A stretch of 34,318 bases of DNA from a virus (Duplodnaviria > Heunggongvirae > Uroviricota > Caudoviricetes). Every line of letters begins with the position of its first letter. Position 1 is the stretch's first letter. Where the stretch lies: IMG/VR virus record IMGVR_UViG_2534681675_000028; one strand, given 5' to 3'. The position numbers and the translations under genes were made by a program. Below are positions 1 to 21,784 of this stretch, one piece after another. The notes under the pieces are model-generated. The model did no database searches. It saw only the letters and a program-made list of their open reading frames with translations, and was not told the origin of the DNA.

Positions 1-906
1 CTATATTTCCAGACATCTGTTATCACTTAACCCATTACAAGCCCGCTGCCGCAGATATTCCCGTGGCGAGCGATAACCCAGCGCACTATGCGGATGCCAT
101 TCGTTATAATGCTCGAACGCCTCTGCAAGGTTCTTTGCTGCCGTTAACCCGTCTGGTTTGGGCATGTTACTGATGTAGTCACGCTTTATCGTTTTCACGA
201 AGCTCTCTGCTATTCCGTTACTCTCCGGACTCCGCACCGCCGTGTTCTTCGGTTCAAGTCCCAACATCCGGGCGAACTGGCGTGTTTCATTAGCCCGGTA
301 GCATGAACCATTATCCGTCAGCCACTCCACTGGAGACGACGGAAGATCGTTGCCGAAGCGGCGTTCCACCGCTCCCAGCATGACGTCCTGTACTGTTTCA
401 CTGTTGAAGCCGCCGGTAGTGACCGCCCAGTGCAGTGCCTCACGATCACAGCAGTCCAGCGCGAACGTGACACGCAGTCTCTCTCCGTTATCACAGCAGA
501 ACTCGAACCCGTCAGAGCACCATCGCTGATTGCTTTCTTTCACGGCCACTCTGCCTGTATGTGCCCGTTTCGATGGCGGTACAGCAGGTTTTCGCTCAAG
601 CAACAGCGCATTCTGGCGCATGATCCGGTAAACACGTTTGGCATTGATCGCAGGCATACCATCAAGTTCTGCCTGTCTGCGAAGCAGCGCCCATACCCGA
701 CGATAACCATACGTGGGCAGCTCTCCGATAACATGGTGTATACGGAGAAGCACATCCGTATCATCAGTGTGACGACTGCGGCGGCCATCCATCCAGTCAT
801 CGGTTCGTCTGAGAATGACGTGCAACTGCGCACGCGACACCCGGAGACAACGGCTGACTAAGCTTACTCCCCATCCCCGGGCAATAAGGGCGCGTGCGCT
901 ATCCAC
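1..906 (-). CDS. insD: IS2 transposase OrfB (InsD), DDE integrase-like
   Basis: 301-aa ORF whose sequence I recognise as IS2 InsD; stop codon at window positions 1-3. Confidence 0.9.
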
Positions 907-1229
907 TTTTTTGCCCGTCCATATTCAACGGCTTCTTTGAGGAGTTCATTTTCCATCGTTTTCTTGCCGAGCAGGCGCTGGAGTTCTTTAATCTGCTTCA
1001 TGGCGGCAGCAAGTTCAGAGGCAGGAACAACCTGTTCTCCGGCGGCGACAGCAGTAAGACTTCCTTCCTGGTATTGCTTACGCCAGAGAAATAACTGGCT
1101 GGCTGCTACACCATGTTGCCGGGCAACGAGGGAGACCGTCATCCCCGGTTCAAAGCTCTGCTGAACAATTGCGATCTTTTCCTGTGTGGTACGCCGTCTG
1201 CGTTTCTCCGGCCCTAAGACATCAATCAT
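864..1229 (-). CDS. insC: IS2 OrfA (InsC), HTH transposase subunit
   Basis: ORF 864-1274 trimmed to the internal Met ([13 protein letters not shown]...), giving about 121 aa; overlaps insD as expected for IS3-family frameshifting. Confidence 0.85.
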
Positions 1230-1320
1230 CTGTTCTCCAATGACTAGTCTAAAAACTAGTATTAAGACTATCACTTATTTAAGTGATACTGGTTGTCTGG
1301 AGATTCAGGGGGCCAGTCTA

Positions 1321-2156: not shown

Positions 2157-3176
2157 CTACTTACTGACCACAAGCGGCAAATCCAGTGTTGGCGTGATTT
2201 TGGTTTTACGATCGTAAATCAACACCTGATTTTCTGTTTTGTGTCCACTGAAAATTTGTTTGTCGCGACTGCTGCCTTCGTAATCTGAAATTCCTTTGGC
2301 TTTTATGTCATGGAAGTTGCACCCAAACGGAACACCGGCTTTTTGCTCGGCTGCACGTTTAGCCTGATTCCACCAGTTGTTCAGCGTTTTAGCTATGACC
2401 TTCCCGCCTTTGGTTGTGTTGATCACATACTCGCATGTGCCGGAAGATACATTTCGGGCTAACTGGATCGCCGTACGTAATCGTGGAGACCATTCCTTGA
2501 TTTGTTTGGTGCCGGTCTTGTTTTGCTCAATGTAAATCCCTTTGTCCATAATATCCTGCCATTTCAGCTCGAGCACATCACCGAGCCTTGCCGCACAGAG
2601 ATAGGATATCTCCATTGCAATACGTAACTGTGGAATTGCTTCCGCATATATCGCAGCATACTGTTCATCGGTGATGTAAACAGTACGGGCTTTAAGCGTG
2701 AATTTTCTGACTCCTTTGCATGGATTATTTTTCACATACCCACGCTCATATCCCCATCCGTATACGCGACTCAGACTTGCCAGTTCATGGTTTGCCTGGG
2801 TCTTGCTCTCAAGCCCCCGCTTATCCATGAAAATTCTTACCTGCTCAATTTTTACATTATCAGCAAGCATTTTCCCGAATACCGCCAGTAATGCCCTTTG
2901 ATGTTGCCGATAATCTTTTTGGGTTCGGGGGGCCAGTTCTGTAAATGCAGGGGAGTCCATAAACATGTGCCATAATTTAGCTACGGTCATTATGTCGTGG
3001 AGTTTTGCCTTTTCCAGTTCATAATTTTGCCAGACTTTAGCCACGCTGGTTTCCCGCACTCTTCCTAGCTTTATCGTCCTTGTGCTTCCTTTGGGCTTCC
3101 ATACGTAACTGTAACCATTCGATCTAACGCGCGGTGGCAGTACATTATCTTTTTTGTCTTTTCTTGGTCTTCCCAT
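2157..3176 (-). CDS. int: Phage integrase, tyrosine recombinase (lambda Int family)
   Basis: 339-aa ORF; N-terminus MGRPRKDKKDNVLPP… and overall layout resemble lambda Int; adjacent to the tRNA-derived att core. Confidence 0.9.
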   Translation of the reverse strand: MGRPRKDKKDNVLPPRVRSNGYSYVWKPKGSTRTIKLGRVRETSVAKVWQNYELEKAKLHDIMTVAKLWHMFMDSPAFTELAPRTQKDYRQHQRALLAVFGKMLADNVKIEQVRIFMDKRGLESKTQANHELASLSRVYGWGYERGYVKNNPCKGVRKFTLKARTVYITDEQYAAIYAEAIPQLRIAMEISYLCAARLGDVLELKWQDIMDKGIYIEQNKTGTKQIKEWSPRLRTAIQLARNVSSGTCEYVINTTKGGKVIAKTLNNWWNQAKRAAEQKAGVPFGCNFHDIKAKGISDYEGSSRDKQIFSGHKTENQVLIYDRKTKITPTLDLPLVVSK

Positions 3177-5946: not shown

Positions 5947-6039
5947 TTTGTTTTAACCTCATTACAGATTTAAGGGTGAACAAATCCCTGCCATTGCTGG
6001 CATATAAAAATGAAACCGGATATTAATTACGGTGCTGTT

Positions 6040-6416: not shown

Positions 6417-6993
6417 TATCGCGTCCTCAACAATGAATTTTGTGATGCGGTGCCTGGTGCCTCCAGGTGACGTTAACCAGTTAACAATTAACGCCGGATA
6501 CAGAGAATCCACCCATAACACTGTTTTTGGTTTTAACTGTTCCGCGTGCGCTGAGCCGCATTCACCGCATCACAAAATTCACTTTTAAAAAAGGGCGGCA
6601 GAGCAGTCACGGAGTAAAACTGATACCGCCAAATGTCACCAGAATATTGATAACAGAGGGCGTTGTAGCGGGGTTGTCACTTAAGCGTATGGTCAACCTG
6701 ACAACCCGGTGTCCTCAACGGGGAAAGGCGTCCCTCCCACCCCCGCCATACTTACCGCCGCGCCATTTCGCGGGTCGCCACAACCGGAAGCGCACGGTCG
6801 AATTAAATTTAACGACACCGTGCAGTGAGACGAACTTCGCCGTGCGCTTTCGTGTTGTGTGCCTGCTTTTAACCACGTCAGGCGAGGTGGTTTCCGTCAT
6901 TCCCCAACGACAGGAAATCTGTATAATCTGGGTATCCCCAACGATCCAAGGAAATCATATGACAGAGCAAAGAGCACAAGCAGGTGATGGTGT

Positions 6994-7200
6994 ATGGACC
7001 GGGATGATATTCTTGACAGAATTTTTTATGGCTATTTTCTTGAGCAACTGTTTTCTGTAGCGACTGGTCGTCTCGATAAACTTCTCTCAGTAGTGAGTAT
7101 TATCCTCGGTTCATCTGTCATTGGCGGATTCATTCCGGAAATTTCTGGCGTTTTTATTGTTGTGATCGCAACCGTCCAAACGATTTATGGATTCGGATAA
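6994..7200 (+). CDS. Small protein with C-terminal hydrophobic/transmembrane segment, opposite in orientation to the surrounding early-left genes
   Basis: 68-aa ORF with AGGTGA Shine-Dalgarno 6 nt upstream; AT-rich; C-terminal LLSVVSIILGSSVIGGFIPEISGVFIVVIATV. Confidence 0.35.
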   Translation: MDRDDILDRIFYGYFLEQLFSVATGRLDKLLSVVSIILGSSVIGGFIPEISGVFIVVIATVQTIYGFG

Positions 7201-7215
7201 AAGTCAGGTAATACC

Positions 7216-7440
7216 ATGAGAAAATCCGCAGAATATTTGCAGCTTTTTGATGATGCAGAAAAATATTCTGATTCGGAATTGAAAATTCAGTTAAAAACTC
7301 TGGAAAAAACAGATAATCATATTTGGTCATCACTTAAAGATATTGCGATCTTAAAAACACAGATCAAAATAGGCGTCTCCATCGAACAACAAGAGAAGTT
7401 GCCCACAAAATCCAAATTGATGCGATTTCTTTGTGGTTAG
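7216..7440 (+). CDS. Hypothetical 74-aa protein, second gene of the plus-strand pair
   Basis: ORF with AGGTAA Shine-Dalgarno 5 nt upstream, 15 bp after the previous gene; AT-rich. Confidence 0.35.
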   Translation: MRKSAEYLQLFDDAEKYSDSELKIQLKTLEKTDNHIWSSLKDIAILKTQIKIGVSIEQQEKLPTKSKLMRFLCG

Positions 7441-7529
7441 GAATATCCAGATTGTTAAAGAGCATGCCGGAGGTTTATCCGTGTCCGGCGCACGCACTTC
7501 ATCTGCGGAGAACTACTTGAGCTCATTGG

Positions 7530-7745
7530 TCAGTAGTTTTCAATCACTCGCGAAACGTTTAATGCCGCGCTTTTTGCCAGAGTGGTAATATCCTGCTCCG
7601 CTGACACCAGTTCTTTAGAGAGGCGCTCTTTGTAGTCAGCGGCCTGCTTCAGGTCATTAATGGCGCGTATCTTTCCGCACATCCATTCGTAAATTTCATC
7701 CTCGGTATAGTCTGGTGCGATGATGACGGGTTCTCGTTTCTGCAT
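7530..7745 (-). CDS. Hypothetical early-left protein
   Basis: 71-aa ORF with GAGG Shine-Dalgarno 7 nt upstream. Confidence 0.45.
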   Translation of the reverse strand: MQKREPVIIAPDYTEDEIYEWMCGKIRAINDLKQAADYKERLSKELVSAEQDITTLAKSAALNVSRVIENY

Positions 7746-7774
7746 ACTGATTCCTCGCGGTGCCGCTTCGCTTA

Positions 7775-7903
7775 TCAGTCGTTAGATTTTGCCGAACTGG
7801 AAAGCGCCTGTTTAAACTCACTGAAGCTGAGAGCTTCTTCGCCTTCGGCAAGGCCTTCGAAGTATTCTTCGTAAGCCTTTTCCATGATTGCGTCGAAATC
7901 CAT
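7775..7903 (-). CDS. Small acidic 42-aa protein (MDFDAIMEKAYEEYFEGLAEGEE…), not in the ORF track because it is under 60 aa
   Basis: Manual translation of the minus strand; AGGTGA Shine-Dalgarno; start overlaps upstream stop (TGAtATG), typical operon packing. Confidence 0.35.
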   Translation of the reverse strand: MDFDAIMEKAYEEYFEGLAEGEEALSFSEFKQALSSSAKSND

Positions 7904-7904
7904 A

Positions 7905-8060
7905 TCACTCACCTGAATTTCTTTCCAGCCAGCGACGCGCGCCAGCTTCGGTTTTAAACGTTTTGCTTCTGGTATACGTCATCGCGGTGAACGTGCCGTC
8001 CTGGTTGGGAAACACGCCGTACACCAGAGATTCGTTGTTGCCAAGATCGATAGTATCCAT
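7905..8060 (-). CDS. Small 51-aa early-left protein (MDTIDLGNNESLVYGVFPNQDGTFTAMTYT…), possibly Rac YdaF-like
   Basis: ORF 7905-8141 trimmed to the internal Met, which has a well-spaced GAGG Shine-Dalgarno; first gene downstream of the putative OL/pL region. Confidence 0.4.
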   Translation of the reverse strand: MDTIDLGNNESLVYGVFPNQDGTFTAMTYTRSKTFKTEAGARRWLERNSGE

Positions 8061-8242
8061 GCTGACCTCATTTCCCCTTAACGCCGGGGTAGCGGAACAA
8101 AAACCTGCTGCATAGTTATTAAAGTTGAACCCTGCCGTCATGTTCTTACGCCTCGGGCTGGCTACTTAACCCCTGACCACTGCCGGGTAACTCTAGGTAT
8201 TGCCCTGCGTTCTGTGGGGCGGGGTGGGTTGGCATGTATATA

Positions 8243-8283
8243 ATGTACTTTATGTTCAGTGTTGTAAAGTACTTTGAGTACAT
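8243..8283. promoter_or_regulatory. OL-like operator cluster (ATGTACT / AAAGTACTTT / GAGTACAT motifs) at the head of the early-left operon
   Basis: Repeated and palindromic GTAC-centred motifs; the same ATGTACTCAAA motif recurs, inverted, in the repressor/cro intergenic region. Confidence 0.4.
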
Positions 8284-8358
8284 TTTATGTGTAAAAAAAT
8301 GAGATGGGAAAAAGTGAAGCACAAACCCGGAGGGGGACGCTACCGGATTTATGCTGGT

Positions 8359-8778
8359 TTAAGAGGCTTTTTGTTTTTTCTTTCGTGCTAACTCTTCGTA
8401 AATTGCATTGTACTTTTGTTTTTTCTCCTCAAGAGTTTTTAAAAGTTCATCTGTCTCACTGTCAGGGAGCTCGTCCAGAAGATCAATGATGATTTTTTGT
8501 CTTGGATTTAACTCCTGATAGAAACGTACCTGTCCACTTTCTTCTGTATCCTCTCCCAAAAGATAGGTTGGTGTTGTTCCAATGAGTGTTGCTAATTCCC
8601 TTAATTTCTCTCGGCGAGGAATTGTTTCGCCATTAAACCATTTGCTAACCGCTTTTGGTGTTAATTTCATTCGACGGGCAATTTCTGCCTGCCTTCCATG
8701 TTGTTCATAACCAGCGTTTTCACAGGCTAGCGCAAGCCTACTGGCGAACTCTTTACGCGCTTTATCTTCATGAACCAT
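8359..8778 (-). CDS. Prophage repressor (CI-like function), XRE-family HTH, no S24 peptidase domain
   Basis: 139-aa ORF with HTH (QAEIARRMKLTPKAVSKWFNG); divergent from a cro-like gene; no Shine-Dalgarno upstream (possibly leaderless like lambda cI). Confidence 0.7.
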   Translation of the reverse strand: MVHEDKARKEFASRLALACENAGYEQHGRQAEIARRMKLTPKAVSKWFNGETIPRREKLRELATLIGTTPTYLLGEDTEESGQVRFYQELNPRQKIIIDLLDELPDSETDELLKTLEEKKQKYNAIYEELARKKKQKAS

Positions 8779-8857
8779 AAGTTCAATGATATTCGCTCTT
8801 GAATGTACTGTCAGTTCTGTTATAGCATGTACTCAAAGTTCACATTGTGAGGGTGAT
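8779..8857. promoter_or_regulatory. OR-like operator/divergent promoter region between repressor and cro-like gene
   Basis: 80-bp intergenic region containing two ATGTACT motifs (TGAATGTACTG, AGCATGTACTCAAAG). Confidence 0.45.
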
Positions 8858-9112
8858 ATGAACCAGAAAACACTTGAAGATGTAATCAAAACTGTTCGCG
8901 TTTCTGTTGTGGCCGACGTTTGTGGTGTCAGCCAAAGAGCAATCTACAAATGGATGGATAACGGAAAATTGCCTCGCACTGAATATACCGGCGAAACAAA
9001 TTATGCTGAAAAAATCGCTCATGCATCAAACGGATTATTTTCTGCCGATGCAATTTTAACTATTGGCAGAAATAAAACTACTACGAAAAAGCTGTTGGGA
9101 GTTGATTCATGA
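8858..9112 (+). CDS. Cro-like HTH regulator (YdaS-like by recollection)
   Basis: 84 aa from the ATG with a GAGGG Shine-Dalgarno; HTH (VADVCGVSQRAIYKWMDNGKLP); divergent from the repressor. Confidence 0.6.
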   Translation: MNQKTLEDVIKTVRVSVVADVCGVSQRAIYKWMDNGKLPRTEYTGETNYAEKIAHASNGLFSADAILTIGRNKTTTKKLLGVDS

Positions 9113-9534
9113 AAATCAAGCATGAGCACATCCGCATGGCGATGAATGCCTGGTCGCATCCGGACGGCGAAAAAGTTCCGGCAGCTGAAATAACCCGGGC
9201 TTATTTTGAACTGGGTATGACGTTTCCGGAACTGTACGACGATTCACACCCAGAAGCCCTGGCTCGCAATACTCAGAAGATTTTCCGCTGGGTGGAGAAA
9301 GACACCCCTGATGCGGTTAAAAAAATTCAGGCGTTGTTACCAGCGATCGAAAAAGCAATGCCACCTCTGCTGGTGGCCCGAATGCGCAGCCACAGTTCAA
9401 CCTGGTTTCGGGAGCTGGTGGAGACGCGGGAACGACTGGTGAGAGACGCTGATGATTTTGTCGCAGTGGCGATCGCTGGTTTCAATCAGATGAATCGTGG
9501 TGGTCCGGCGGGAAATGCCGTGGTGATGCACTAA
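9109..9534 (+). CDS. CII-like early regulator (YdaT-like by recollection)
   Basis: 141-aa ORF starting MKIKHEHI…; start overlaps the cro-like stop (ATGA); position equivalent to cII. Confidence 0.5.
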   Translation: MKIKHEHIRMAMNAWSHPDGEKVPAAEITRAYFELGMTFPELYDDSHPEALARNTQKIFRWVEKDTPDAVKKIQALLPAIEKAMPPLLVARMRSHSSTWFRELVETRERLVRDADDFVAVAIAGFNQMNRGGPAGNAVVMH

Positions 9535-9557
9535 AAGCACGGTGTTCGGAGTTTTTT

Positions 9558-10505
9558 ATGAGCAGCAAGCTTCATGGTCTTGTCTGGGAAGGGTGTGCCT
9601 TCACCGGCATGATCTTATCCAGGGTGGCAGTAATGGCTCGCCTTGCAGATTACAGCAATGACGAAGGTGTGTCATGGCCTGCAGTGGAGACCATTCGTCG
9701 TCAGATTGGGGCAAAGAGTGAATCAACGGTTAAAGCGGCGATAGCGGAACTGGAAAAGAACGGCTGGCTGACGAAGGAGGAACGTAAGGTCGGTGGGCGT
9801 AATGAAAGCAATATCTACCGTCTTAATGTGGAAAAACTCGAAGCAGCAGCAGCGGCGGCGCGTGAGGCATATAAACCGAAAAGAAAAATTAACCCGGTAA
9901 AAAATGACCCGTCAAATATTGACCCCTCAACGGTTGACCCCTCAAATTTTGATGGATCAACCGTTGATAAAAAACATTCGGTTAGGGGGACGATGGTTGG
10001 CCCCGATCCGTCAGTATTAAAACCTGATCCGCCAGATAAAAGATCTTCTTGTCCGGACGCTTCGCAACCGGACCCGCAGATGGCTGAACAGGATTTTTTA
10101 ACCCGACACCCTGACGCGGTTGTGTTCAGTGCGAAAAAACGCCAGTGGGGCAGCCAGGAAGATTTAGCGTGTGCGCAGTGGATCTGGGGGCGAATCGTGA
10201 GTCTTTACGAGCAGGCTGCCAGCGATGATGGCGAAATCATGCGACCGAAAGAACCAAACTGGACTGCATGGGCCAATGATGTGCGCACAATGCGGATGCT
10301 GGATGGCAGAACTCACAGACAAATTTGCGAAATGTTTGGTCGGGTACAGCGGGATCCATTCTGGGTAAAAAACATCATGAGTCCGGCAAAACTCCGGGAA
10401 AAATGGGATGAGCTGGTTATTCGTCTGGGGCGTTCGCCTGTACAGCGTTGCGTGAATCACATTTCTGAACCGGATACCGAAATTCCGCCGGGGTTCAGGG
10501 GGTAA
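9558..10505 (+). CDS. Replication initiator (lambda O-like function), winged-helix N-terminus, with origin iterons inside the gene
   Basis: 315-aa ORF in the O position; contains four 11-bp iterons spaced 15 bp apart, encoding the repetitive NDPSNIDPSTVDPSNFDGSTVD. Confidence 0.65.
   Translation: MSSKLHGLVWEGCAFTGMILSRVAVMARLADYSNDEGVSWPAVETIRRQIGAKSESTVKAAIAELEKNGWLTKEERKVGGRNESNIYRLNVEKLEAAAAAAREAYKPKRKINPVKNDPSNIDPSTVDPSNFDGSTVDKKHSVRGTMVGPDPSVLKPDPPDKRSSCPDASQPDPQMAEQDFLTRHPDAVVFSAKKRQWGSQEDLACAQWIWGRIVSLYEQAASDDGEIMRPKEPNWTAWANDVRTMRMLDGRTHRQICEMFGRVQRDPFWVKNIMSPAKLREKWDELVIRLGRSPVQRCVNHISEPDTEIPPGFRG
9906..9961. repeat. Four direct iterons (TGACCCGTCAA, TGACCCCTCAA, TGACCCCTCAA, TGATGGATCAA) on a 15-bp period: putative replication origin
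   Basis: Direct reading of the sequence; iteron starts at 9906, 9921, 9936 and 9951. Confidence 0.55.
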
Positions 10506-10547
10506 GTGTTGATTTGAGGTCATGAAGTTATTTTCTCAGGAGAGTTT

Positions 10548-10949
10548 ATGGGGGCTATTTATACCGAAGAACAGCGGGAAAGATTACAGCGTCACATCGT
10601 TGACCTTGTACGTAAAAACGGGCGTATGAAAATGCCACAACTGGCATCGGCAACATATGCTTCACATGATTCCATTCGCCGGTACCTGAAGATGCTGGTG
10701 AGCCAGGGCGAAGTGTATGTTGTCAGCGGAAAAGGGGTATTCCTTTCAGAGAGAGTTTACCGTGAATGGCTGGCAAGTTCGGCAAAAAAATCAAGGGTTA
10801 TCCGCAAACCAGCACAAAAACAGGGTAAGGCCGGAGTACAACCCTACGACCGGCACCAGAACGTAATTTGCCGGGAATGTCGTAACAGCGAATCAATGCA
10901 GCGGGTACTGGCTTTTTACCGGGGTGGATTTCAGGAGCTCGTATCGTGA
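10548..10949 (+). CDS. Hypothetical protein
   Basis: 133-aa ORF with CAGGAGAG Shine-Dalgarno; family not recognised. Confidence 0.5.
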   Translation: MGAIYTEEQRERLQRHIVDLVRKNGRMKMPQLASATYASHDSIRRYLKMLVSQGEVYVVSGKGVFLSERVYREWLASSAKKSRVIRKPAQKQGKAGVQPYDRHQNVICRECRNSESMQRVLAFYRGGFQELVS

Positions 10950-11254
10950 AAAAGTGGGTGCGTGCCGAGATACTGATTCTACGGCAGTGTGCGGGAACAA
11001 TGACGGTGGAATGTATCGGGATGCTTATTGGTCGTAGTGAGGCTGCGGTCAGAACGAAAGCGCGGGAACTGGGTATTAGTATGATGTTACGGGGTGATTA
11101 TCACCAGTCAGCAAAATATCCGCAGAGTGATATTGAGCTGGCGCGACAGCTGCATCAGCTTGGCGTGTCCAGGAGAGAAATCGCCAGAAAATTTGGAATG
11201 CCGCTGCGCACAGTGAATAACTACGTTTATTTCGACAGGAGGGTGTCTGCGTGA
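10946..11254 (+). CDS. Hypothetical DNA-binding protein with two HTH-like segments
   Basis: 102-aa ORF; GTG start overlapping the upstream stop, CAGGAG Shine-Dalgarno. Confidence 0.5.
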   Translation: MKKWVRAEILILRQCAGTMTVECIGMLIGRSEAAVRTKARELGISMMLRGDYHQSAKYPQSDIELARQLHQLGVSRREIARKFGMPLRTVNNYVYFDRRVSA

Positions 11255-11484
11255 AAATCCTGTATCAGGATTACGGCCCGGTGGGACAGGTGGTTATCAG
11301 CAGTACTGTAATGGAGTTCCGGAAGCATAACCGTGTGGTGGATGCAGTACTGTTAGCCTGTCCGGGGATATCGGCGAGCCGTGCAGGTGTGTTTTTTATG
11401 AAGACGAAGTTATATGGCAGTACAGCGTGGATAAAGAAGGCGTACCGGGTAGCGTTACAGGAGGTAAACAGTGAGCGAAATTAA
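11251..11484 (+). CDS. Hypothetical protein
   Basis: 77-aa ORF; GTG start overlapping the upstream stop, CAGGAGGG Shine-Dalgarno. Confidence 0.45.
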   Translation: MKILYQDYGPVGQVVISSTVMEFRKHNRVVDAVLLACPGISASRAGVFFMKTKLYGSTAWIKKAYRVALQEVNSERN

Positions 11485-11932
11485 CTGTCAGGCACTGCGA
11501 GAGGCGGCAGAGAAAGCAACTAAAGGAAGCTACATCGTAGGGCATACGTCTGTTAACCAGCATGGCAATTTAACAGGAGTTTTTGTTTGTCAAAAATGGA
11601 AAGGAGAACCCGGTGGCGTGATTGCAGAATGTCATGTTAACTGCCTGGTTGAAACAGATGCTCAGGCTTACGCAAACGCTGAATTTATTGCTGCCTTTAA
11701 TCCAAAGGTTGCGCTGGCGATACTGGATAAGCTGGAAGCTAAAGACAAGCGCATTGCAGAACTGGAGGCGAGGGAAATCCAGTTACCTGCTGGCTTCGAC
11801 CTTCGATATGGACACCCGATAAATGCTGATGAGCGACATGTGATGATACCTAAAGAAAATGGCAACTGGATTCATCGGACTGACTTAGAGCACTCACTAC
11901 GTGTTGCAGGGATTCGTATTAAAGGAGACTAA
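11471..11932 (+). CDS. Hypothetical protein, possibly ead/Ea22-like
   Basis: 153-aa ORF with AGGAGG Shine-Dalgarno; family assignment by recollection only. Confidence 0.45.
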   Translation: MSEINCQALREAAEKATKGSYIVGHTSVNQHGNLTGVFVCQKWKGEPGGVIAECHVNCLVETDAQAYANAEFIAAFNPKVALAILDKLEAKDKRIAELEAREIQLPAGFDLRYGHPINADERHVMIPKENGNWIHRTDLEHSLRVAGIRIKGD

Positions 11933-11933
11933 C

Positions 11934-12290
11934 GTGGAAATAAAACCAGAAGATGAGTTAAGTAATATTGTTTTATTTCCGGTAAAAGAGGATGACCCAC
12001 GTAATCAGGTTAATTTTCTTTATGAGCCATCGGAAAGACCATATTGTCATCACGACTCTGTCCGGGTTGACGAAAAAGAGCGTCAGGTCCGCTGTAAAAT
12101 CTGCGGTGCAGTTGTGGAGCCATTTGACTGGATGCTCTCTGTGGCGAAAAGAGAAACCAGACTGGCAGATGATGTAAGGATCTTGCGCCAGGAGGAACGG
12201 GAAAGGCGGAGAAATATAGAAAAGCTAATTCAGATTGAGCGTAACGTGAAAGCGCGGATACGCAGGGCGACAAAATCCAGAACAGAATAA
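11934..12290 (+). CDS. Hypothetical zinc-ribbon protein (C-x-HH … C-x2-C), basic C-terminus
   Basis: ORF 11901-12290 trimmed to GTG 11934, which has an AAAGGAG Shine-Dalgarno 6 nt upstream and follows the previous stop. Confidence 0.45.
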   Translation: MEIKPEDELSNIVLFPVKEDDPRNQVNFLYEPSERPYCHHDSVRVDEKERQVRCKICGAVVEPFDWMLSVAKRETRLADDVRILRQEERERRRNIEKLIQIERNVKARIRRATKSRTE

Positions 12291-12338
12291 TTAAATTTAG
12301 CACTGTTAAAAATTTAATCCTTAACCGGAGGTATATCA

Positions 12339-12533
12339 ATGTCAAACGCACAGAAAGTTATTAACGCTGAAAAATATAACGAGTGGGTGAAAAAGTTCTC
12401 AGAGCAGATTTTTAAAATTACTGGCGACGAGAATGCGGCAAAAAATGAATTAGAGCCGTGGACACCTGAAGGTGTCGCCCCAAATTATTGCTGGTGGATG
12501 TTGATCCAGTTGATGCTGCAAATGAAGCGATGA
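12339..12533 (+). CDS. Hypothetical small protein
   Basis: 64-aa ORF with GGAGG Shine-Dalgarno. Confidence 0.45.
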   Translation: MSNAQKVINAEKYNEWVKKFSEQIFKITGDENAAKNELEPWTPEGVAPNYCWWMLIQLMLQMKR

Positions 12534-12585
12534 GTTATCACAACGATTAATGTCAGGAGGCCGCCCGAAAGGGCGGTAATGAAAA

Positions 12586-13276
12586 GTGACTGAATTAACC
12601 AAAGAGCAATTAATCGAAGAAGCCAAATTAAAAATAGCGATTGCGAAATGCCACCCCAATTCAGGGATGGCACGGGTAGAGGGCGAGTTATTCAAAATTG
12701 CACTGGCATCGCTGGTAGCAGAACCGCTGGTGCCCGTCATGTATAAAGGAATGAAACTGTTAACAAAAGAGGGGCTTGAGCTTATTCGTGACGGTATTGC
12801 GGAGGCTACGGGACTGGAAGCAATGTGTATGGCTGATGCTTTGCTGTCTGGGGGGGGGGGCAGTGCCGTCAGTGCCGAAAGAAATGTATTGGCAGGATGC
12901 ACCAGTTGAAAGTAGCAGCAAAGCAGCTGCATACGCTACAGGCTGGAAAGCCTGCCGCGAAGCCATGCTTCAGTCCGGAAACTTTCGGGATAATAAGAAT
13001 TCGTCAACCAACAATTTTCGGGAAATCCCGGAAACGTCAACCAGCTCTCAGGGAACTCCGGCTGGCTGGATAAGCTGTAGTGATGCAGTTCCTGCTGAAT
13101 ATTGCGATGTGATTCTGCGCGATGATCTCGGGAATGTATTCCCCGGTTCATGGGATAAGGTTTTTTGCCCCACTCGTGGCGGGAATAAGATGGCTTTTGT
13201 GGACAAAGACGGCGTCGAAGTAGAGAGCTCAACCCACTGGATGCCGCTACCAGAATCGCCGAAGGTGGTGAAGTGA
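12586..13276 (+). CDS. Ea22-like/DUF551-type protein split into two overlapping ORFs (12586-12909 and 12776-13276) at a G11 homopolymer
   Basis: Two ORFs in frames +1 apart meet at the G run 12850-12860; removing one G gives a single ORF (…LLSGGG|AVPSVPKEMYWQ…); C-terminus has the HWMPLPE motif I associate with DUF551. Confidence 0.5.
12850..12860. repeat. G11 homopolymer inside a coding region
   Basis: Direct reading: ctg followed by ten g. Confidence 0.9.
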
Positions 13277-13450
13277 TGGAAAATGAATTCGAAAATGCTA
13301 TCGCCACGGTGCAGCCAAAATCAATAGTTGAGTAGACTTACTCTGAGGCTTGACTACGAGGTTACCATTAGGTGTAATTTAGAGTAAGTTGGTAGCCTCA
13401 GTTGTCGAAGAGGCATAATGGTGATTGTTAGTTGATGCAATAATTAAGGA

Positions 13451-13942
13451 ATGTTAATGCCTACTAATGCTGAACAACCAGTATCAATTAGTAAACCGAA
13501 GACCGTTACACTTCGTGCTTTTGAAATAAAAAACACTGCACTTTCGAAAAGTTCTAGCGAAGCTAAGGCCGATTTGATAGCAAGGCTTAGTCAAGTAAAA
13601 CAGGCAAAAGATAGATGCATGTTGTTAAATCCAGAAGATCCTAAGCAGGAAAGAGATGTTCTTTCGTATTTTAAAGAATCTCCTGTTACTGATTCAGTAT
13701 TTTGCACTATGTTAAGGATTACATCTGACAAAGAAATCCAACACATAACAGATTCTCTTTTTGAGAAAGAGGTCTTTTCTCTGGATGATATAGAAACATC
13801 TCATTTAGATGTGTCAGCAATATGTAAAGGCCATTACTATTTTTGCATGAGTGATGATTTTTTAGTTACAAATCTCCCATTAAATAAAACGATTGTGCGT
13901 TTACAAACGTATCTGAGTTGGTTTACAAATAATGAGCTTTAA
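13451..13942 (+). CDS. Hypothetical protein, gene A of an AT-rich accessory cassette
   Basis: 163-aa ORF; markedly AT-rich relative to flanking phage genes; family not recognised. Confidence 0.5.
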   Translation: MLMPTNAEQPVSISKPKTVTLRAFEIKNTALSKSSSEAKADLIARLSQVKQAKDRCMLLNPEDPKQERDVLSYFKESPVTDSVFCTMLRITSDKEIQHITDSLFEKEVFSLDDIETSHLDVSAICKGHYYFCMSDDFLVTNLPLNKTIVRLQTYLSWFTNNEL

Positions 13943-13957
13943 GAATTCACCCCACTA

Positions 13958-14470
13958 GTGTCAGCAAAAGGGAAAACGAAACTTAGTGATTTAAAAGCCA
14001 TAATCGTTAAAGATCCAGAACCGTTAGTACCGACTGCTATGTGTGATGAGTCTGGTGTTAGAAGTAAAAAGGGAGAAATTACGGTTAGCGAAGGTCATAA
14101 ATCTATCAAGTTAACACAAAAAGTTCTGGATATTATCAGGAGTTCGATGTCAGACTCTGAACAACTTAATGATATGATGCTGAGTCAAATGATTTCTGCT
14201 GAATTGTTAATAAAATTTAAAAAGCCACGCAGAATGACAGATGATGAATATAGTAGAGCTTTAGGGGCTTATTTGAAACCCGTTAGCGATCTTGATAATG
14301 TATCATTTAAGCGAAAAGATAACAAAACAGAAGTGAAAGGCAAGGATTTGCTGTTAACAAAGTCTGTAAGTATTGAAACGACACAGTCAGGTAAATTAGT
14401 TGAGCATCATTTGCTACAAGAGATGAGCAAGTTTTTGCTAGAGTTAAGCAATGAAAAAAATAGCGGTTAG
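13958..14470 (+). CDS. Hypothetical protein, gene B of the cassette; same reading frame as gene A, separated by a single TAA; no evident Shine-Dalgarno
   Basis: 170-aa ORF; in-frame continuation after the TAA at 13940-13942 reads EFTPLVSAKGKTK…. Confidence 0.4.
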   Translation: MSAKGKTKLSDLKAIIVKDPEPLVPTAMCDESGVRSKKGEITVSEGHKSIKLTQKVLDIIRSSMSDSEQLNDMMLSQMISAELLIKFKKPRRMTDDEYSRALGAYLKPVSDLDNVSFKRKDNKTEVKGKDLLLTKSVSIETTQSGKLVEHHLLQEMSKFLLELSNEKNSG

Positions 14471-14912
14471 CGTATTATCAATATTGCTGCTCACATTGTT
14501 GGCTAGTTCAGTCTGGGATGTTCGTCCGGACGGTTTTTTTGCGTCGACAGTTTTTACAATTTCTGGAATAATGTTCTCAATTGGATTAGGGCTAATTGTG
14601 AATTTTAGCACATCCGGTGTAAGGAACCGTGGATACATTCTGCGTATTAGACGTAATGTAATGAGGGTGAGGAATTCATTTCTATTATATTTTGGTTTGT
14701 CGACTTTTTCTTACATAGCAAATCAATATCTTACTGCTTTTGAGTTTTCTTTAACCTTTGGTGATGGTATCAAAACATGTTTTAGCGCATCCATATTCTT
14801 TTGCTTGCTTATAATTTATTCCTCTATATATTTTGTTGTTAATTTTATAGAGTTGCAAAAACTCAATAATGATATTTTTGATAAAGTCAATGCGGAAATA
14901 ACTAACAAATGA
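14451..14912 (+). CDS. Small polytopic membrane protein (about 4 predicted transmembrane helices), gene C of the cassette
   Basis: 153-aa ORF overlapping the end of gene B by 20 nt; four long hydrophobic segments; AT-rich. Confidence 0.55.
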   Translation: MKKIAVSVLSILLLTLLASSVWDVRPDGFFASTVFTISGIMFSIGLGLIVNFSTSGVRNRGYILRIRRNVMRVRNSFLLYFGLSTFSYIANQYLTAFEFSLTFGDGIKTCFSASIFFCLLIIYSSIYFVVNFIELQKLNNDIFDKVNAEITNK

Positions 14913-15123
14913 AATGGCTTTTGTGTGCATGTTAAATAAAGAATACATGGCATCATTTAATGATGTCATGTGTAACGAGCGAAAAGCCTTTTGAACGGTT
15001 TTCATAAGTTATATTGAAAGATAAAATTGCTGCGGGTGCTTGAGGCTATCTGCCTCAGGCATGAACACCAACGGCAGATAGATAAAAGCCCCACCCGACT
15101 ATAAATCGAAGTGAGGCCCCTAT

Positions 15124-15336
15124 ATGCTCGTCACATACAGATTGCCTCTTACGGACCGAAAGGTCAAGGAGAAGCAGGCTATGAAGCAGCAAAAGGCGAT
15201 GCTAATCGCCCTGATCGTCATCTGTTTAACCGTCATAGTGACGGCACTGGTAACGAGGAAAGACCTCTGCGAGGTACGAATCCGAACCGGCCAGACGGAG
15301 GTCGCTGTCTTCACAGCTTACGAACCTGAGGAGTAA
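15124..15336 (+). CDS. mok: mok-like reading frame (N-terminally extended, in frame with hok)
   Basis: ORF in the same frame as hok sharing its stop codon, the arrangement I recall for chromosomal mok/hok pairs. Confidence 0.5.
   Translation: MLVTYRLPLTDRKVKEKQAMKQQKAMLIALIVICLTVIVTALVTRKDLCEVRIRTGQTEVAVFTAYEPEE
15181..15336 (+). CDS. hok: Hok/Gef-family type I toxin (51 aa)
   Basis: MKQQKAMLIALIVICLTVIVTALVTRKDLCEVRIRTGQTEVAVFTAYEPEE closely resembles Hok (…[25 protein letters not shown]…); AGGAG Shine-Dalgarno. Confidence 0.8.
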   Translation: MKQQKAMLIALIVICLTVIVTALVTRKDLCEVRIRTGQTEVAVFTAYEPEE

Positions 15337-15403
15337 GAGACCTGGCGGGGAGAATTCCCTCGCCACCTCTGATGTGTCAGGCTTCCTCAACGCACCCGCA
15401 CTT

Positions 15404-15430
15404 AACCCGCTTCGGTGGGTTTTGTTTTTT
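15404..15430 (+). terminator. Rho-independent terminator after hok
   Basis: Hairpin AACCCGC-TTCG-GTGGGTT followed by TTTGTTTTTT. Confidence 0.6.
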
Positions 15431-15502
15431 CTGTGCATTCTGGTTTACAATTCGCACGCCAGCCTGAACAACTGGCACCTGCTGCGCCAGCAGAGACAAC
15501 CG

Positions 15503-15781
15503 ATGGCGCACGATACCAAATTACACAATTCTGATGATTCTGCCGTCTTTGCCAGCAGGCACGGGCTGCGTTCTCACGCATTCAAATATGACTGGTATCA
15601 GCACGATCCCTGTACTGAAGAACAGGCCGAATGGCTGATTCATAACTACCGCAGACGTGGGTATGAGTTTAAGAAAGCCCTCAGTCTCGATTATCGTCAC
15701 TGGATAATCTACGTCAGGCTCCCTTATTCCGAACGCCCGCCGCGTCCATCCCGCACATTCCAGCAACGGATCTGGAGGTAA
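15503..15781 (+). CDS. Hypothetical nin-region protein
   Basis: ORF 15374-15781 trimmed to the ATG at 15503, because the upstream part overlaps the hok terminator. Confidence 0.4.
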   Translation: MAHDTKLHNSDDSAVFASRHGLRSHAFKYDWYQHDPCTEEQAEWLIHNYRRRGYEFKKALSLDYRHWIIYVRLPYSERPPRPSRTFQQRIWR

Positions 15782-15782
15782 C

Positions 15783-16832
15783 GTGCGGGTATTACTTCGA
15801 CCTGTTCCGGTGCCGGAACTCGGGCTGGTGGTCCTTAAGCCGGGCCGTGAATCTATGCAGGTATTTCATAATCCCCGGGTACTGGTGGAGCCGGAACCGA
15901 AAAGCATGCGCGGTCTGCCGTCCGGAGCTGTTCCTGCCGTTCGCCAGGCGCTGGCGGAAGATAAATCATTACTGCCATTTTTCAGCGATGAGCGGGTGAT
16001 TCGTGCTGCTGGCGGCGCTGGTGCACTGTCTGACTGGCTGTTGCGTCATGTCAAATCCTGCCAGTGGCCTCATGGTGACTATCATCACAGTGAAACCGTC
16101 ATACATCGTTACGGTACCGGCGCGATGGTGTTGTGCTGGCACTGCGACAACCAGTTGCGTGACCAGACCTCCGAATCACTCGGGCAACTTGCTCATCAAA
16201 ACCTGTCGGCATGGATGATTGACGTCATACGCCACGCAATGAATGGCACACAAGAGCGGGAATTATCGCTGGCTGAATTGTACTGCTGGGCTGCTGTAAA
16301 TGATGTAGTGGATGCCATGACCGAAAATATGGCGCGTCGAATCCTGAAGCGTCCGGGTGAAAAAATCCGCTCAATATACCGCGAGAGCGACATCATACCG
16401 GGAGAACCGACAGCCACCAGCATACTGAAGCAGCGCACAAAAAATATTGCGCTACCACCTTACGCCCACCAGCAACAGAACCCACCACAGGAAAAGACGG
16501 TGGTCAGCATCGCCGTTGATCCGGAGTCTCCTGAATCTTTCATGAAGCGACCTAAACGTCGCCGTTGGGTAAATGAGAAATATACGCGCTGGGTGAAGAC
16601 TCAGCCGTGTGCGTGTTGTGGTCAACCAGCCGACGATCCCCATCACCTGATTGGTCATGGTCAGGGCGGAATGGGAACAAAGGCCCACGATATTTTTACA
16701 CTACCGCTGTGCCGGGAGCATCACAACGAACTTCATGCGGATCTGCTGGCGTTCGAAGAAAACCATGGTTCCCAGATTGATTTAATTTTTCGTTTTCTTG
16801 ATCACGCCTTTGCAACCGGCGTGCTTGGGTAA
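15783..16832 (+). CDS. DUF968-type prophage protein with C-terminal HNH-like Cys/His motif (YdfU-like by recollection)
   Basis: 349-aa ORF; GTG start with GGAGG Shine-Dalgarno; C-terminal CACCGQ…HHLIGHGQGGMGTKAHD…CREHHNELH. Confidence 0.6.
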   Translation: MRVLLRPVPVPELGLVVLKPGRESMQVFHNPRVLVEPEPKSMRGLPSGAVPAVRQALAEDKSLLPFFSDERVIRAAGGAGALSDWLLRHVKSCQWPHGDYHHSETVIHRYGTGAMVLCWHCDNQLRDQTSESLGQLAHQNLSAWMIDVIRHAMNGTQERELSLAELYCWAAVNDVVDAMTENMARRILKRPGEKIRSIYRESDIIPGEPTATSILKQRTKNIALPPYAHQQQNPPQEKTVVSIAVDPESPESFMKRPKRRRWVNEKYTRWVKTQPCACCGQPADDPHHLIGHGQGGMGTKAHDIFTLPLCREHHNELHADLLAFEENHGSQIDLIFRFLDHAFATGVLG

Positions 16833-16844
16833 AAGAGGTTACTG

Positions 16845-17216
16845 ATGCGTATAGAGTTTGTTTTGCCTTACCCGCCGACGGTGAACACCTACTGGCGACG
16901 TCATGGCAGCACATATTTTGTATCAAAAGCCGGTGAGCGTTATCGCCGTGATGTGGCGTTCATTGTTCGCCAGCAGCGGTTGAAATTAAACCTCTCCGGA
17001 AGGCTGGCGATAAAGATTATTGCAGAGCCACCGGATAAGCGCCGTCGTGACCTGGACAATATCCTGAAAGCACTGCTGGATGCGCTGACACATGCGGGGC
17101 TGCTTATAGACGACGACCAGTTTGATGAAATCAATATTGTGCATGGTCTGCCTGTTTGCGGTGGGCGACTGGGTGTGAATATATTCGTAATAAGAGGATG
17201 TAATGATGTTGCGTGA
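16845..17216 (+). CDS. rusA: Holliday junction resolvase RusA
   Basis: 123-aa ORF; YWRRHG…[22 protein letters not shown] matches RusA motifs as I recall them. Confidence 0.85.
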
Positions 17217-17577
17217 TATTCAGCTGGTTATGGAGCGGTGGGGAGCATGGGCAGCAAGTAATCATGAAGATGTAACATGGTCCTCGATAGCTGCTGGTTT
17301 TAAAGGATTAATCCCGACTAAAGTGAAATCACGTCCTCAGTGTTCTGATGATGACGCCATGATAATTTGTGGCTGTATGGCACGATTAAACAAGAATAAT
17401 CAGTATTTGCACGATTTGTTGGTGGATTATTACGTAGGTGGAATGACATTTATGGCTCTTGCACGTAAGCATAGATGTTCTGATGGGCTTATTGGTAAAA
17501 GACTTTATAAAGCTGAAGGTATTATTGAAGGAATGCTTATGGCTCTGAATGTCCGGTTAGATATGGATATGCGGTAG
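17203..17577 (+). CDS. Q: Late-gene antiterminator Q (phage 21/82-type, QuuD-like)
   Basis: 124-aa ORF; [34 protein letters not shown]…[16 protein letters not shown] matches my recollection of QuuD. Confidence 0.85.
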
Positions 17578-17670
17578 GGATATATAGTGACGAGGGTTAT
17601 GTTTTCCGTGTTTATAATTAATATGTTTATTTTTTGATGGTCATGAATTTTATGGAAGGTAAACAAAATG

Positions 17671-17699
17671 TTGCCAGGTGAATTGAAAATATTGATAAT
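17671..17699 (+). promoter_or_regulatory. Sigma70-type promoter (TTGCCA, 17-bp spacer, GATAAT) downstream of Q: candidate late promoter pR' or cargo promoter
   Basis: Direct reading: -35 at 17671-17676, -10 at 17694-17699; about 30 bp upstream of the next start codon. Confidence 0.45.
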
Positions 17700-17730
17700 C
17701 AATCATCATCATTAAATAAAAGGAGTGTTT

Positions 17731-18549
17731 ATGTGGATTGTGTTAGCACTGTCACTGTCAACTCTCAGTTGGCATAAGGTAGTGGCTTTTTCATTGTTGA
17801 CGGTGTCTGTTGTCCTGGCTGTGCTTAATGATATTATTGATTGGCCGGTGTTGTTTTTTGTTGCTACAATCGTTTTTTTTATTATTTTGAAGTTCAACTG
17901 GAAATATAACGCCTGGGCTAAATCCATATATGAAGCTGGCATAGTTTTATCAGCCATAGCATTATCTTTCCATTTATGGCCAGGGTTTCACAATCCTGTA
18001 GTGCTAAAGTCTGTCACTGTCGGACCTCAAAGCACTCCCTATACAATGTATTTTAATTTTGATAAAGCGCTGGTGCCATTTTTGTTAGTCCTGTGTACAG
18101 CTTCTTTGTTTAAAAAAGAAGTGAAATCAGAAGTGTCTTTGTGGAAATGGGGGGCTCTGTTGCTCTCTGTTCCTCTTATACTGTTTTTGGCTGTTTTTTT
18201 TGGTGGGTTAAAGCCAGAGATTCATTTTCCAGAGTGGTTGCCAGAGTTTATATTGGCTAATTTGTTTTTTGTGTCTCTGGCAGAGGAGTCATTATTTAGA
18301 GGGTATATTCAATCACGGCTATCAGAAGTGACGTCTCCATTGGTTGCGTTAATTGTGGCGTCTTTGTTGTTTGGTTTTTATCACTATTCAGGTGGTGCTT
18401 TACTTGTATTATTTGCCACGTTATCTGGTGTTGTGTATGGATTGTCATGGATGTGGAGTGGGTGCTTGTGGGTGGCAACCCTTTTCCATTTTGGTCTGAA
18501 TCTGTGTCACTTGTTATTCTTTACCTATCCATTCTTAAAACATAATTGA
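17731..18549 (+). CDS. CPBP-family (CAAX protease / Abi, PF02517-type) intramembrane metalloprotease
   Basis: 272-aa polytopic ORF with AGGAG Shine-Dalgarno; conserved motifs EExxxR (AEESLFRGY), FxxxH (FGFYHY) and HxxxN (HFGLNLCH). Confidence 0.75.
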   Translation: MWIVLALSLSTLSWHKVVAFSLLTVSVVLAVLNDIIDWPVLFFVATIVFFIILKFNWKYNAWAKSIYEAGIVLSAIALSFHLWPGFHNPVVLKSVTVGPQSTPYTMYFNFDKALVPFLLVLCTASLFKKEVKSEVSLWKWGALLLSVPLILFLAVFFGGLKPEIHFPEWLPEFILANLFFVSLAEESLFRGYIQSRLSEVTSPLVALIVASLLFGFYHYSGGALLVLFATLSGVVYGLSWMWSGCLWVATLFHFGLNLCHLLFFTYPFLKHN

Positions 18550-18688
18550 TTTTTTTCTATGGCTTTAAATTTATAACACTGAAAAATAGCAGTATGTGAC
18601 ATTTGCATGAAAAATATGCACGGCAAAGCATTTACGTACGTAAAAAATCATGTATGCTTTTAAGAGTGGTTATTTCACCGCATAGCCT

Positions 18689-18714
18689 GAACCCGCCTCT
18701 GAGCGGGTTTTTTG
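18689..18714 (+). terminator. Rho-independent terminator after the CPBP gene
   Basis: ACCCGC-CTCTGA-GCGGGT followed by TTTTTTG. Confidence 0.65.
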
Positions 18715-18836
18715 TGCCCGCAAAGTAGCGCAGTGCGTTAAATGTGCTGGTAGTTATTAATACTGGTCTTTCTGCTTGCTGGCTTTTTAGACAAGAGTTA
18801 TTGGTATGTCACGTTAACCAGAAAAGGGAAAAAGAC

Positions 18837-19034
18837 ATGCTAAAACAGCAGGATATGACCGAAACCGCCAGAGTGGTGTTTAATGAATTAAGCGTCACCG
18901 AACCGGCGACCGTCGGGGAGATTGCGCAGAATACTTACCTTTCACGCGAGCGCTGCCAGTTAATACTGACTCAGCTTGTTATGGCGGGTCTGGCAGATTA
19001 TCAGTTCGGTTGTTACAGACGCCTTCCGCAGTGA
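18837..19034 (+). CDS. Small hypothetical protein, possibly winged-helix DNA-binding
   Basis: ORF 18744-19034 trimmed to the internal ATG (MLKQQDMTET…) preceded by AAGGGAA. Confidence 0.4.
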   Translation: MLKQQDMTETARVVFNELSVTEPATVGEIAQNTYLSRERCQLILTQLVMAGLADYQFGCYRRLPQ

Positions 19035-19184
19035 AGGCTTTTTAATTTGTGGTAATGGGCGGCTGGTGGGTGTTAGCGGCACCTGCCAGCCATCTGCTCA
19101 TGCGTTGGGGTCACAAGCAAACCTCAGGCCCATCTGCTTTGCGCAAAAGCGGTATGAGCCTATCAGAGAAGTGCTTATTGATCT

Positions 19185-19734
19185 ATGGCTAATACTGTAA
19201 AAATATCCAGCTGCGAGTTAATCAACGCTGATTTCCTGGAATTTATCCAGACCTTACCGGAAAACTCTGTCGATCTGATAGTCACAGACCCGCCATACTT
19301 TAAAGTGAAGCCCGAGGGCTGGGATAACCAGTGGAAGGGCGACGATGATTACCTGAAATGGCTGGATCAGTGTCTGGCGCAGTTCTGGTGGGTATTAAAA
19401 CCCGCCGGAAGTCTTTACCTGTTCTGTGGTCATCGCCTGGCATCTGATATCGAAATCATGATGCGTGAGCGCTTTAATGTGCTGAACCACATTATCTGGG
19501 CGAAGCCGTCCGGGCGCTGGAACGGGTGCAACAAGGAAAGCCTGCGGGCGTATTTCCCGGCAACAGAGCGCATTCTGTTTGCGTCCGGGAGATTTGGTTG
19601 CCGACTTTTTCATGGGGTCAGGCTCCATAATAAAAGCAGCGCTGGCACTTGGGGGCATGGCGTTAAGCGTTGAACTTGAGTCTGAACGTTTTGAGCATAC
19701 TGCGGGTGAAATAGTTACGTTGGCAGATAATTAA
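19185..19734 (+). pseudogene. DNA N6-adenine (beta-class) methyltransferase with an apparent frameshift near 19585
   Basis: N-terminal frame has DPPY (motif IV); the +1 frame downstream reads RPGDLVADFFMGSGSIIKAALALGG (motif I, FxGxG); the two frames do not join without an indel. Confidence 0.6.
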
Positions 19735-19848
19735 ATCACTGCACAATAAGCTAATGAATTGATGTTAACTTCCCGTATTATTGGGCTACTTCGAGAGAAA
19801 GGTGCATTACATTTCAGATGTATTTCATCTCACATCCGAGGAAGCAAT

Positions 19849-19924
<76 letters not shown>

Positions 19925-19927
19925 TAT

Positions 19928-20002
<75 letters not shown>

Positions 20003-21748: not shown

Positions 21749-21784
21749 CCATTATACAACGCCCGCATCTGCGAGGTGGGGGTT

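Follow-up and report, generated by a model that had tools for sequence, protein, structure and literature searches.

A length-variable G tract splits a DUF551 gene in a lambdoid prophage of Escherichia coli

What does it mean for a prophage gene to be broken by a run of one nucleotide? The question is raised by a viral record of 34,318 bp (IMGVR_UViG_2534681675_000028; the whole stretch analyzed is called the window here), in which 11 consecutive G residues (G11) put the DUF551 gene at 12586-13276 out of frame. The original prediction had considered a phase-variable switch, programmed frameshifting, and a homopolymer sequencing error. Having compared the tract with its counterparts in other assemblies, we favor, with some reserve, another answer, namely, that it is a replication-slippage hot spot in a nonessential DUF551 accessory gene, where changes in length would be tolerated rather than exploited.

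The split gene and its prophage

The tract is flanked on the left by TGCTGTCT and on the right by CAGTGCCG (with longer flanks, ...GCTTTGCTGTCT-G11-CAGTGCCGTCAGTGCCGAAAGAAATG...). It is the sole run of G or C longer than 6 in the window, the next longest being two G6 runs and one C6 run, which bears out the claim that such a run is unusual for this kind of genome. In dinucleotide-preserving shuffles, the expected number of runs of at least nine G was 0.19, and 1 shuffle out of 100 had as many matches as the tract gives. The features of the gene are listed below.

12586..12909, plus strand: ORF1, GTG start, 107 aa, frame 1
12850..12860, plus strand: G11 homopolymer, hypervariable tract (G7 to G13 in other copies)
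12861..12878, plus strand: 9-nt tandem duplicate CAGTGCCGT/CAGTGCCGA, encoding VPSVP, directly 3' of the tract
12861..13276, plus strand: rest of the gene, linker and DUF551 domain, frame 2
12863..12865, plus strand: GTG in the DUF551 frame, 2 nt past the G run
12884..12886, plus strand: ATG in frame with DUF551, used by NCBI to begin a 130-aa product (P0125, WP_001360559.1)
13064..13264, plus strand: DUF551 domain (PF04448), residues 160 to 226 of the restored protein, Pfam

ORF1, the protein of which is identical to a recorded protein (P0133), comprises an N-terminal helical module (residues 1 to 88), the Gly codons, and a 15-aa out-of-frame tail, SAVSAERNVLAGCTS, followed by TGA. The downstream ORF in frame 2 is open from 12776 to the stop at 13276, and the segment from 12861 onward belongs to one protein only with G7, G10, or G13. 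As had been predicted, removal of one G from G11 restores a single ORF (229 aa), while addition of two gives an ORF of 230 aa. Read in frame, the tract supplies Gly2-4 of the motif L-S-G(n)-A-V-P. Gene callers start a 137-aa product (P0129) at the GTG 2 nt past the run in G11 and G8 copies, and one might speculate that initiation there allows the DUF551 part to be made separately. The 9-nt duplicate is a second small repeat at the domain junction, present in one or two copies in relatives. Immediately 5' of the GTG start of the gene, at about 12558 to 12578, there is a GC-rich hairpin, GGCCGCCC-GAAA-GGGCGGT, without a T tail.

The gene had been described as Ea22/DUF551-like, and only the second half of this name was retained. 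The restored protein matched PF04448 over the whole 68-position profile (E value of 8e-17; 62.3 bits against a cutoff of 22), while no match to Ead/Ea22 (PF13935) at an E value of ≤1 was obtained with Pfam in either the restored protein or ORF1; the PF13935 match belongs to a separate upstream ORF at 11471-11932, the true Ead/Ea22-like gene. No Pfam domain was found in ORF1, no PDB relative was found by sequence, and the PHROGs families matched were all of "unknown function." DUF551 has been described as a portable C-terminal domain of unknown function, present in the V2 variant of Ea22 from Stx phages and in YfdS (PMC10834534, PMC4776307). An AlphaFold2 model was built on the G7 allele, and given its scores (pLDDT of 57 and pTM of 0.32), the domain layout alone was used. 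In this layout, helices at residues 6 to 87 are followed by a low-confidence segment (90 to 156), which the Gly codons open, and then by a beta domain (about 160 to 221; pLDDT of 74 to 80). The tract is thus predicted to encode the start of a flexible interdomain linker between the helical module and the DUF551 domain, and such a position would explain why two, three, or four Gly residues are all tolerated and why the tract coincides with a recombination junction (see below).

The window corresponds to a lambdoid E. coli prophage, in which the integrase is followed by an exonuclease, DicF, repressor/cro-like genes, replication genes, and a nin-like block of small accessory genes, the DUF551 gene among them, and then by hok/sok; DUF968, RusA, and Q; tRNA-Thr and tRNA-Gly; and lysis, terminase, portal, head, and tail genes. 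The landmarks used in this work are as follows.

1..906, minus strand: IS3-family orfB (rve), running off the window
864..1274, minus strand: IS3-family orfA (HTH_Tnp_1)
2157..3176, minus strand: integrase
6593..6644, minus strand: DicF antisense RNA (Rfam RF00039, 77 bits)
13457..14470: gene after the DUF551 gene, 337 aa, no Pfam match, split by a stop at 13940-13942 into 161 and 170 aa
15034..15183 and about 15209: sok antitoxin RNA (Rfam RF01794, 102.9 bits) and intact hok
19849..20002: tRNA-Thr(UGU) and tRNA-Gly(UCC), downstream of Q

Positions 1923 to 21748 of the window are collinear with, and 99.3% identical to, a prophage beside yccA in E. coli OkiPb01695 (NZ_AP042570.1). The late region of the window (21749 to 34318), with a lambda-like terminase, portal, and head, is not collinear with that prophage, which has a P27-type small terminase, an HK97-type head, and a tail sheath among its late genes. 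By this pattern of collinearity, the two prophages are mosaics that share the early half only. DicF adjoins dicB/ydfA/ydfB-like genes, so that the immunity region resembles those of the Qin/Kim-type cryptic prophages. The IS3-family pair has the arrangement typical of -1 frameshifting, with an overlap of 43 nt between orfA and orfB. It is situated beyond the integrase end of the prophage, at the place occupied by yccA in OkiPb01695; a similar IS was found just downstream of the DUF551 gene in one of the other copies (L055).

Variation in tract length on nearly identical flanks

In order to find other copies of the gene, protein searches with the restored sequence were combined with the cluster listing. 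Among the proteins found were some that only a change in tract length could explain, and the DNA was then fetched from public assemblies. The tract was read directly in the DNA of 36 further loci, corresponding to 35 distinct copies (the OkiPb01695 region is represented twice, by L002 and L008). The number of loci per length, the approximate number of recorded contigs per allele, and the product are given below; the loci were sought via the protein of each allele, and the samples are clonal rather than independent, so that allele frequencies are biased.

G7: 1 locus (L039), about 1 contig, product of 228 aa
G8: 1 locus (L054), about 1 contig, product of 106 aa
G9: 9 loci, about 16 contigs, product of 161 aa
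G10: 4 loci (L008, L052, L053, and L055), about 7 contigs, product of 229 aa
G11: 9 loci and the window, about 24 contigs besides the window, product of 107 aa
G12: 9 loci, about 24 contigs, product of 162 aa
G13: 3 loci, about 3 contigs, product of 230 aa

All three frames were therefore represented. Lengths for which n mod 3 = 1 (7, 10, and 13) give the full protein of 228 to 230 aa, while those of 8 and 11 end in the 15-aa out-of-frame tail and those of 9 and 12 end in a tail of 71 aa, the DUF551 domain being absent in both cases. In-frame contigs made up ca. 11 of 77 (about 14%), below the one-third expected by chance. Going by its sequence, the window carries the common out-of-frame (OFF) allele. 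Large assemblies also disagree with each other: OkiPb01695 and AP025751 have G10, a 5.19-Mb contig has G12, and a 4.37-Mb contig has G11. In the annotation of OkiPb01695, the gene appears as a single intact DUF551 coding sequence (WP_464291680.1). Among contigs from different samples, there were pairs with total lengths exactly one base apart (14,642/14,643, 8,451/8,452, 3,378/3,379, and 3,357/3,358). Some of the one-base differences in the tract fall between isolates of a single sequencing series; like the contig breaks described below, they are at most a hint of frequent switching within a clonal population.

The flanks were compared without gaps, up to 3 kb per side, and the copies were sorted into haplotypes. 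The window haplotype, with G11, G12, or G13, was found at 21 other places, with 1 mismatch in 88,308 flank bases, and yet the tract differed in length from that of the window at 12 of the 21. The OkiPb01695 haplotype, 14 single nucleotide polymorphisms (SNPs) away from the window type, carried G8, G9, or G10 with 0 flank mismatches; L055 (G10) differed from the window type by two SNPs and the IS insertion, and G7 was found on a third haplotype. As a control, 14 other homopolymers of 6 to 7 nt within ±3 kb were invariant. Per locus, divergence was about 5 × 10^4 times as frequent in the tract as at a base of the flanks, a crude figure because the samples were neither independent nor randomly ascertained. 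This length polymorphism on conserved flanks strongly supports the view that the tract is, across isolates, a hypermutable slipped-strand site, in agreement with the original prediction.

The pure run is rare, having been found in 1 of 5,426 complete E. coli genomes. A pattern scan of a genome collection with one genome per species returned only chance matches in unrelated taxa, and scans of viral and metagenome contigs returned interrupted alleles only, with no further tract lengths.

Probable origin of the tract and reliability of the calls

In relatives with the same N-terminal module, the DUF551 gene lacks the pure run and stays in frame across this site. Three versions of this sequence were found.

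TCT GGG GCG TCA GTG CCG: ECCNB12-2, 25 complete E. coli genomes, two IMG/VR contigs, and three metagenome contigs
TCT GGG GTG TCA: one metagenome contig
TCT GCG CCG TCA: PK8241

The interrupted alleles had one fixed in-frame length in the 25 complete genomes (all spans of 240 bp), the 2 IMG/VR contigs, and 4 metagenome contigs. The comparison of orthologues, which had been proposed as a check, thus yielded a stable in-frame tract for the interrupted alleles only, the pure G run being variable. The similarity of Stx-phage DUF551 genes to the window does not set in until the first base past the tract (query position 276), which places the run on a domain and mosaic junction. No full-length orthologue was present in the phage collection, where Stx phages had the middle module alone, with its start directly 3' of the tract.

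Slippage of the polymerase is accepted as the mechanism behind homopolymer contingency loci. In the present case, the ancestor was most likely the stable, in-frame GGGGCGT or GGGGTGT of the relatives; two substitutions in GGGGCGT would have produced G7, without change of length or frame, and gains or losses of single G residues would then have led to lengths of G8 to G13, presumably by slippage of DNA polymerase on the uninterrupted run. The G7 to G13 series would in this way show how such a tract arises, apparently by two substitutions at a domain linker.

We next considered how far the lengths can be trusted. Within a given study, the calls were reproducible, with an identical G10 contig in 11 samples and, in another series, G9 contigs in about 18 samples and G10 contigs in one or two. 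There were seven lengths in all, their ranges were specific to the haplotype, and within a haplotype, they lay within ±1 to 2 of a mode (11/12 for haplotype A and 9 for haplotype B), a clustering that is also expected from technical error around one true length. Failures do occur: a short-read contig at NCBI (L060) ends one base before the tract, another (L061, 1765 to 1879) runs on as G13-C-G22 followed by garbled sequence, and several partial proteins at NCBI stop at residues 84 to 88, that is, at the tract. The break in the former contig and the junk in the latter are failures of assembly or base calling caused by the G run. We conclude that the length polymorphism is largely real, although any single call, including that of the window, could be off by one.

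For the window itself, a miscall or assembly error would mean that the source strain really had G10 or G13, and hence an intact frame, or G12. The nearest complete genome, OkiPb01695, does have G10 and an intact coding sequence, and the window also exceeds it by one base at two T7 runs and one T9 run; the short-read contigs that fail at the tract point the same way. However, OkiPb01695 belongs to a different flank haplotype and is therefore the wrong reference for the length in the window, whereas 24 other contigs, obtained from independent samples by independent pipelines, have G11 as well and match the window exactly in their flanks. Moreover, the window has no other indel within ±3 kb with respect to same-haplotype copies, the 14 control homopolymers included. 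Its length is thus neither unique to this assembly nor accompanied by other homopolymer indels relative to the closest relatives, and we regard an error of this kind as improbable.

In the comparison of the window with OkiPb01695 alone, homopolymers differed at 18550 (T7/T6), 20061 (T7/T6), 20299 (T9/T8), 21059 (C5/C7), and 15347 (G4/G5), the window being longer at all three T runs, of which at least that at 18550 is intergenic. These differences could be either real polymorphism or platform bias.

Recoding, tolerated instability, or a switch

Could the G11 allele nevertheless yield the full-length protein, by +1 (or -2) ribosomal frameshifting on the GGG codons or by slippage of RNA polymerase on the run? 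A tRNA-Gly would be able to re-pair in any frame on the G run, the prophage has a tRNA-Gly(UCC) of its own, the run is Shine-Dalgarno-like, and the 100 nt 3' of it are moderately structured, with a fold better than that of shuffles (z = -2.8). However, the fold across the tract is unremarkable (z = -1.2), with no covariation to be expected among identical sequences, and no slow, rare, or stop codon that would assist a +1 shift was found at the site. Above all, no frame relation is fixed and conserved among orthologues: G8 and G11 would need a shift of +1 and G9 and G12 one of -1, while G7, G10, and G13 need none, and where relatives lack the run, a single ORF simply reads through the site. Programmed frameshifting, one of the options raised at the outset, is therefore not supported. 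As for transcriptional slippage, it calls for an A or T run of about 9 nt or longer in the transcript, whereas the run here consists of G; in E. coli, the insertions that arise when homopolymers are transcribed were confined to A/T runs, G/C runs being considered not prone to slippage (PMC5574713). Recoding of the G11 allele to full length appears very improbable to us, although there may be low-level, unprogrammed leakiness. Going by the sequence alone, a role as a G-quadruplex was also given little weight, as a lone G11 without neighboring G tracts could form at best a weak two-tetrad structure.

The main question is then whether the instability is used. We consider it probable that it is simply tolerated and that a dispensable gene drifts between ON and OFF, mostly OFF, with no adaptive use. 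Along these lines, other genes nearby have also been disrupted in one haplotype or another. All copies of the window haplotype have a TTA-to-TAA nonsense mutation at 13941, in the 337-aa gene that follows, which is intact in OkiPb01695-type copies. The latter have a Trp-to-stop change that leaves 132 aa of the Ead/Ea22-like gene (L008, 13730 to 14053), the 153 aa of which are intact in the window, and their hok is frameshifted by an 11-bp tandem duplication (T + CTGATCGTCA) common to the Illumina copies of this haplotype. Together, the low share of in-frame contigs and the nonsense mutations and duplication in neighboring genes suggest relaxed selection, although the excess of out-of-frame alleles could also reflect selection for OFF instead of neutrality. 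Besides, the DUF551 gene lies in the early lytic operon, where a scan of 11400 to 13600 for promoters and terminators gave nothing above shuffles, so that the gene is probably silent in lysogens.

Alternatively, the tract could be a true contingency locus, kept by selection for mutability, in which reversible, stochastic ON/OFF switching of the full-length DUF551 protein benefits the prophage or its host, e.g., through the balance of lysis and lysogeny, a stress response, or exclusion. At the sequence level, the tract has the features of simple-sequence-repeat contingency-type loci in phages and prophages: an uninterrupted run of at least 7 G in a coding region, switching between full-length and truncated frames, and length polymorphism on identical flanks. 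The run has, furthermore, persisted and lengthened on three haplotypes instead of being interrupted. DUF551 is also present in the Ea22 V2 variant of Stx phages, which is prolysogenic, and in YfdS, which has been linked to H2O2 sensitivity (PMC10834534), and contingency loci have been documented in phages (bioRxiv 10.1101/2025.10.21.683753), as has a prophage-borne repeat in neuO of E. coli K1 (PMC3046976). Against this, full-length alleles are less frequent than chance would give, the neighboring genes are being inactivated, the gene is probably silent in the lysogen, its PHROGs families and the PDB offer no function or relative, and the tract-bearing allele is rare among complete genomes. 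We therefore think it unlikely that switching is adaptive. More specifically, it seems a long shot that slippage operates as a working switch of a temperate coliphage, toggling the DUF551 protein between a fused form and an uncoupled one, the latter consisting of the N-terminal module alone, with the DUF551 part possibly reinitiated at the GTG past the Shine-Dalgarno-like run. If it did, a population of lysogens would be in mixed states, with the gene, like the Ea22 variant of Stx phages that bears DUF551, biasing lysis versus lysogeny or stress survival, and E. coli, usually considered almost devoid of such loci, would have a homopolymer switch.

In order to put the tract into perspective, we compared it with known systems. 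To our knowledge, the Campylobacter host of the Fletchervirus phages lacks mismatch repair. These phages have hypermutable poly(G) tracts (G7 to G11) in receptor-binding protein genes (Sorensen et al. 2021 Cell Rep 35:109214, via bioRxiv 10.1101/2025.10.21.683753), and in the account given there, as in our case, an intragenic run of similar length in a phage shifts the frame when it changes length, creating subpopulations in Fletchervirus. According to the same account, Fletchervirus phages are virulent, with a demonstrated host-range phenotype, whereas ours is a temperate lambdoid prophage of E. coli for which no phenotype is known. In the contingency loci of phages T2 and T4 (agt and rIIA), slippage frameshifts are reversible, at ca. 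10,000-fold the reversion of point mutations (Gomez, Barrick and Waters, bioRxiv 10.1101/2025.10.21.683753). These are likewise coding homopolymers of coliphages, and the excess of tract over flank divergence obtained here, crude as it is, is of the same order; however, they are homopolymers of at least 6 bases in virulent phages and were measured, while ours is an 11-nt G run in a prophage, assessed by comparing populations.

Within temperate E. coli prophages, a parallel is found in neuO, the repeat unit of which is reportedly a heptanucleotide. In this gene of prophage CUS-3 of E. coli K1, a simple-sequence repeat switches the frame ON and OFF (PMC3046976), and it shares with our tract the shifting of a reading frame in a temperate prophage. 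Unlike the tract, the neuO repeat is near the 5' end, and the gene encodes a known polysialic acid O-acetyltransferase, expressed in the lysogen, with a clear surface phenotype. The classical poly(G/C) contingency genes of Campylobacter, Neisseria, Haemophilus, and Bordetella (e.g., PMC1891110, PMC5084427) resemble the tract in being uninterrupted, changing in steps of ±1, and becoming stable once interrupted, but those species have many such loci, acting on surface structures, and here we have an isolated case. As in Ea22 V2 of Stx phages and YfdS of cryptic prophage CPS-53, a C-terminal DUF551 domain is joined to variable N-terminal parts in mosaic early genes; however, the N-terminal module here has no Ead_Ea22 signature, and a homopolymer switch has been reported in neither of those genes (PMC10834534, PMC4776307). 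The longest coding homopolymer in E. coli K-12 is 9 nt (PMC5574713).

The tract is thus a rare natural case of hypermutability in E. coli, where long coding G/C homopolymers are almost absent. If switching turned out to have a phenotype, phage contingency loci would extend to temperate lambdoid phages, and the tract would provide a handle on the function of DUF551. In practical terms, automatic annotation of this gene will vary among isolates between intact, split, and "frameshifted," and assemblies from short reads break at the run. The tract length might also be useful as a rapidly evolving marker in prophages that are otherwise identical. As a minor observation, the tRNA-Gly(UCC) carried by the prophage reads GGA and GGG, the latter being the codon made by the tract, which is probably a coincidence.
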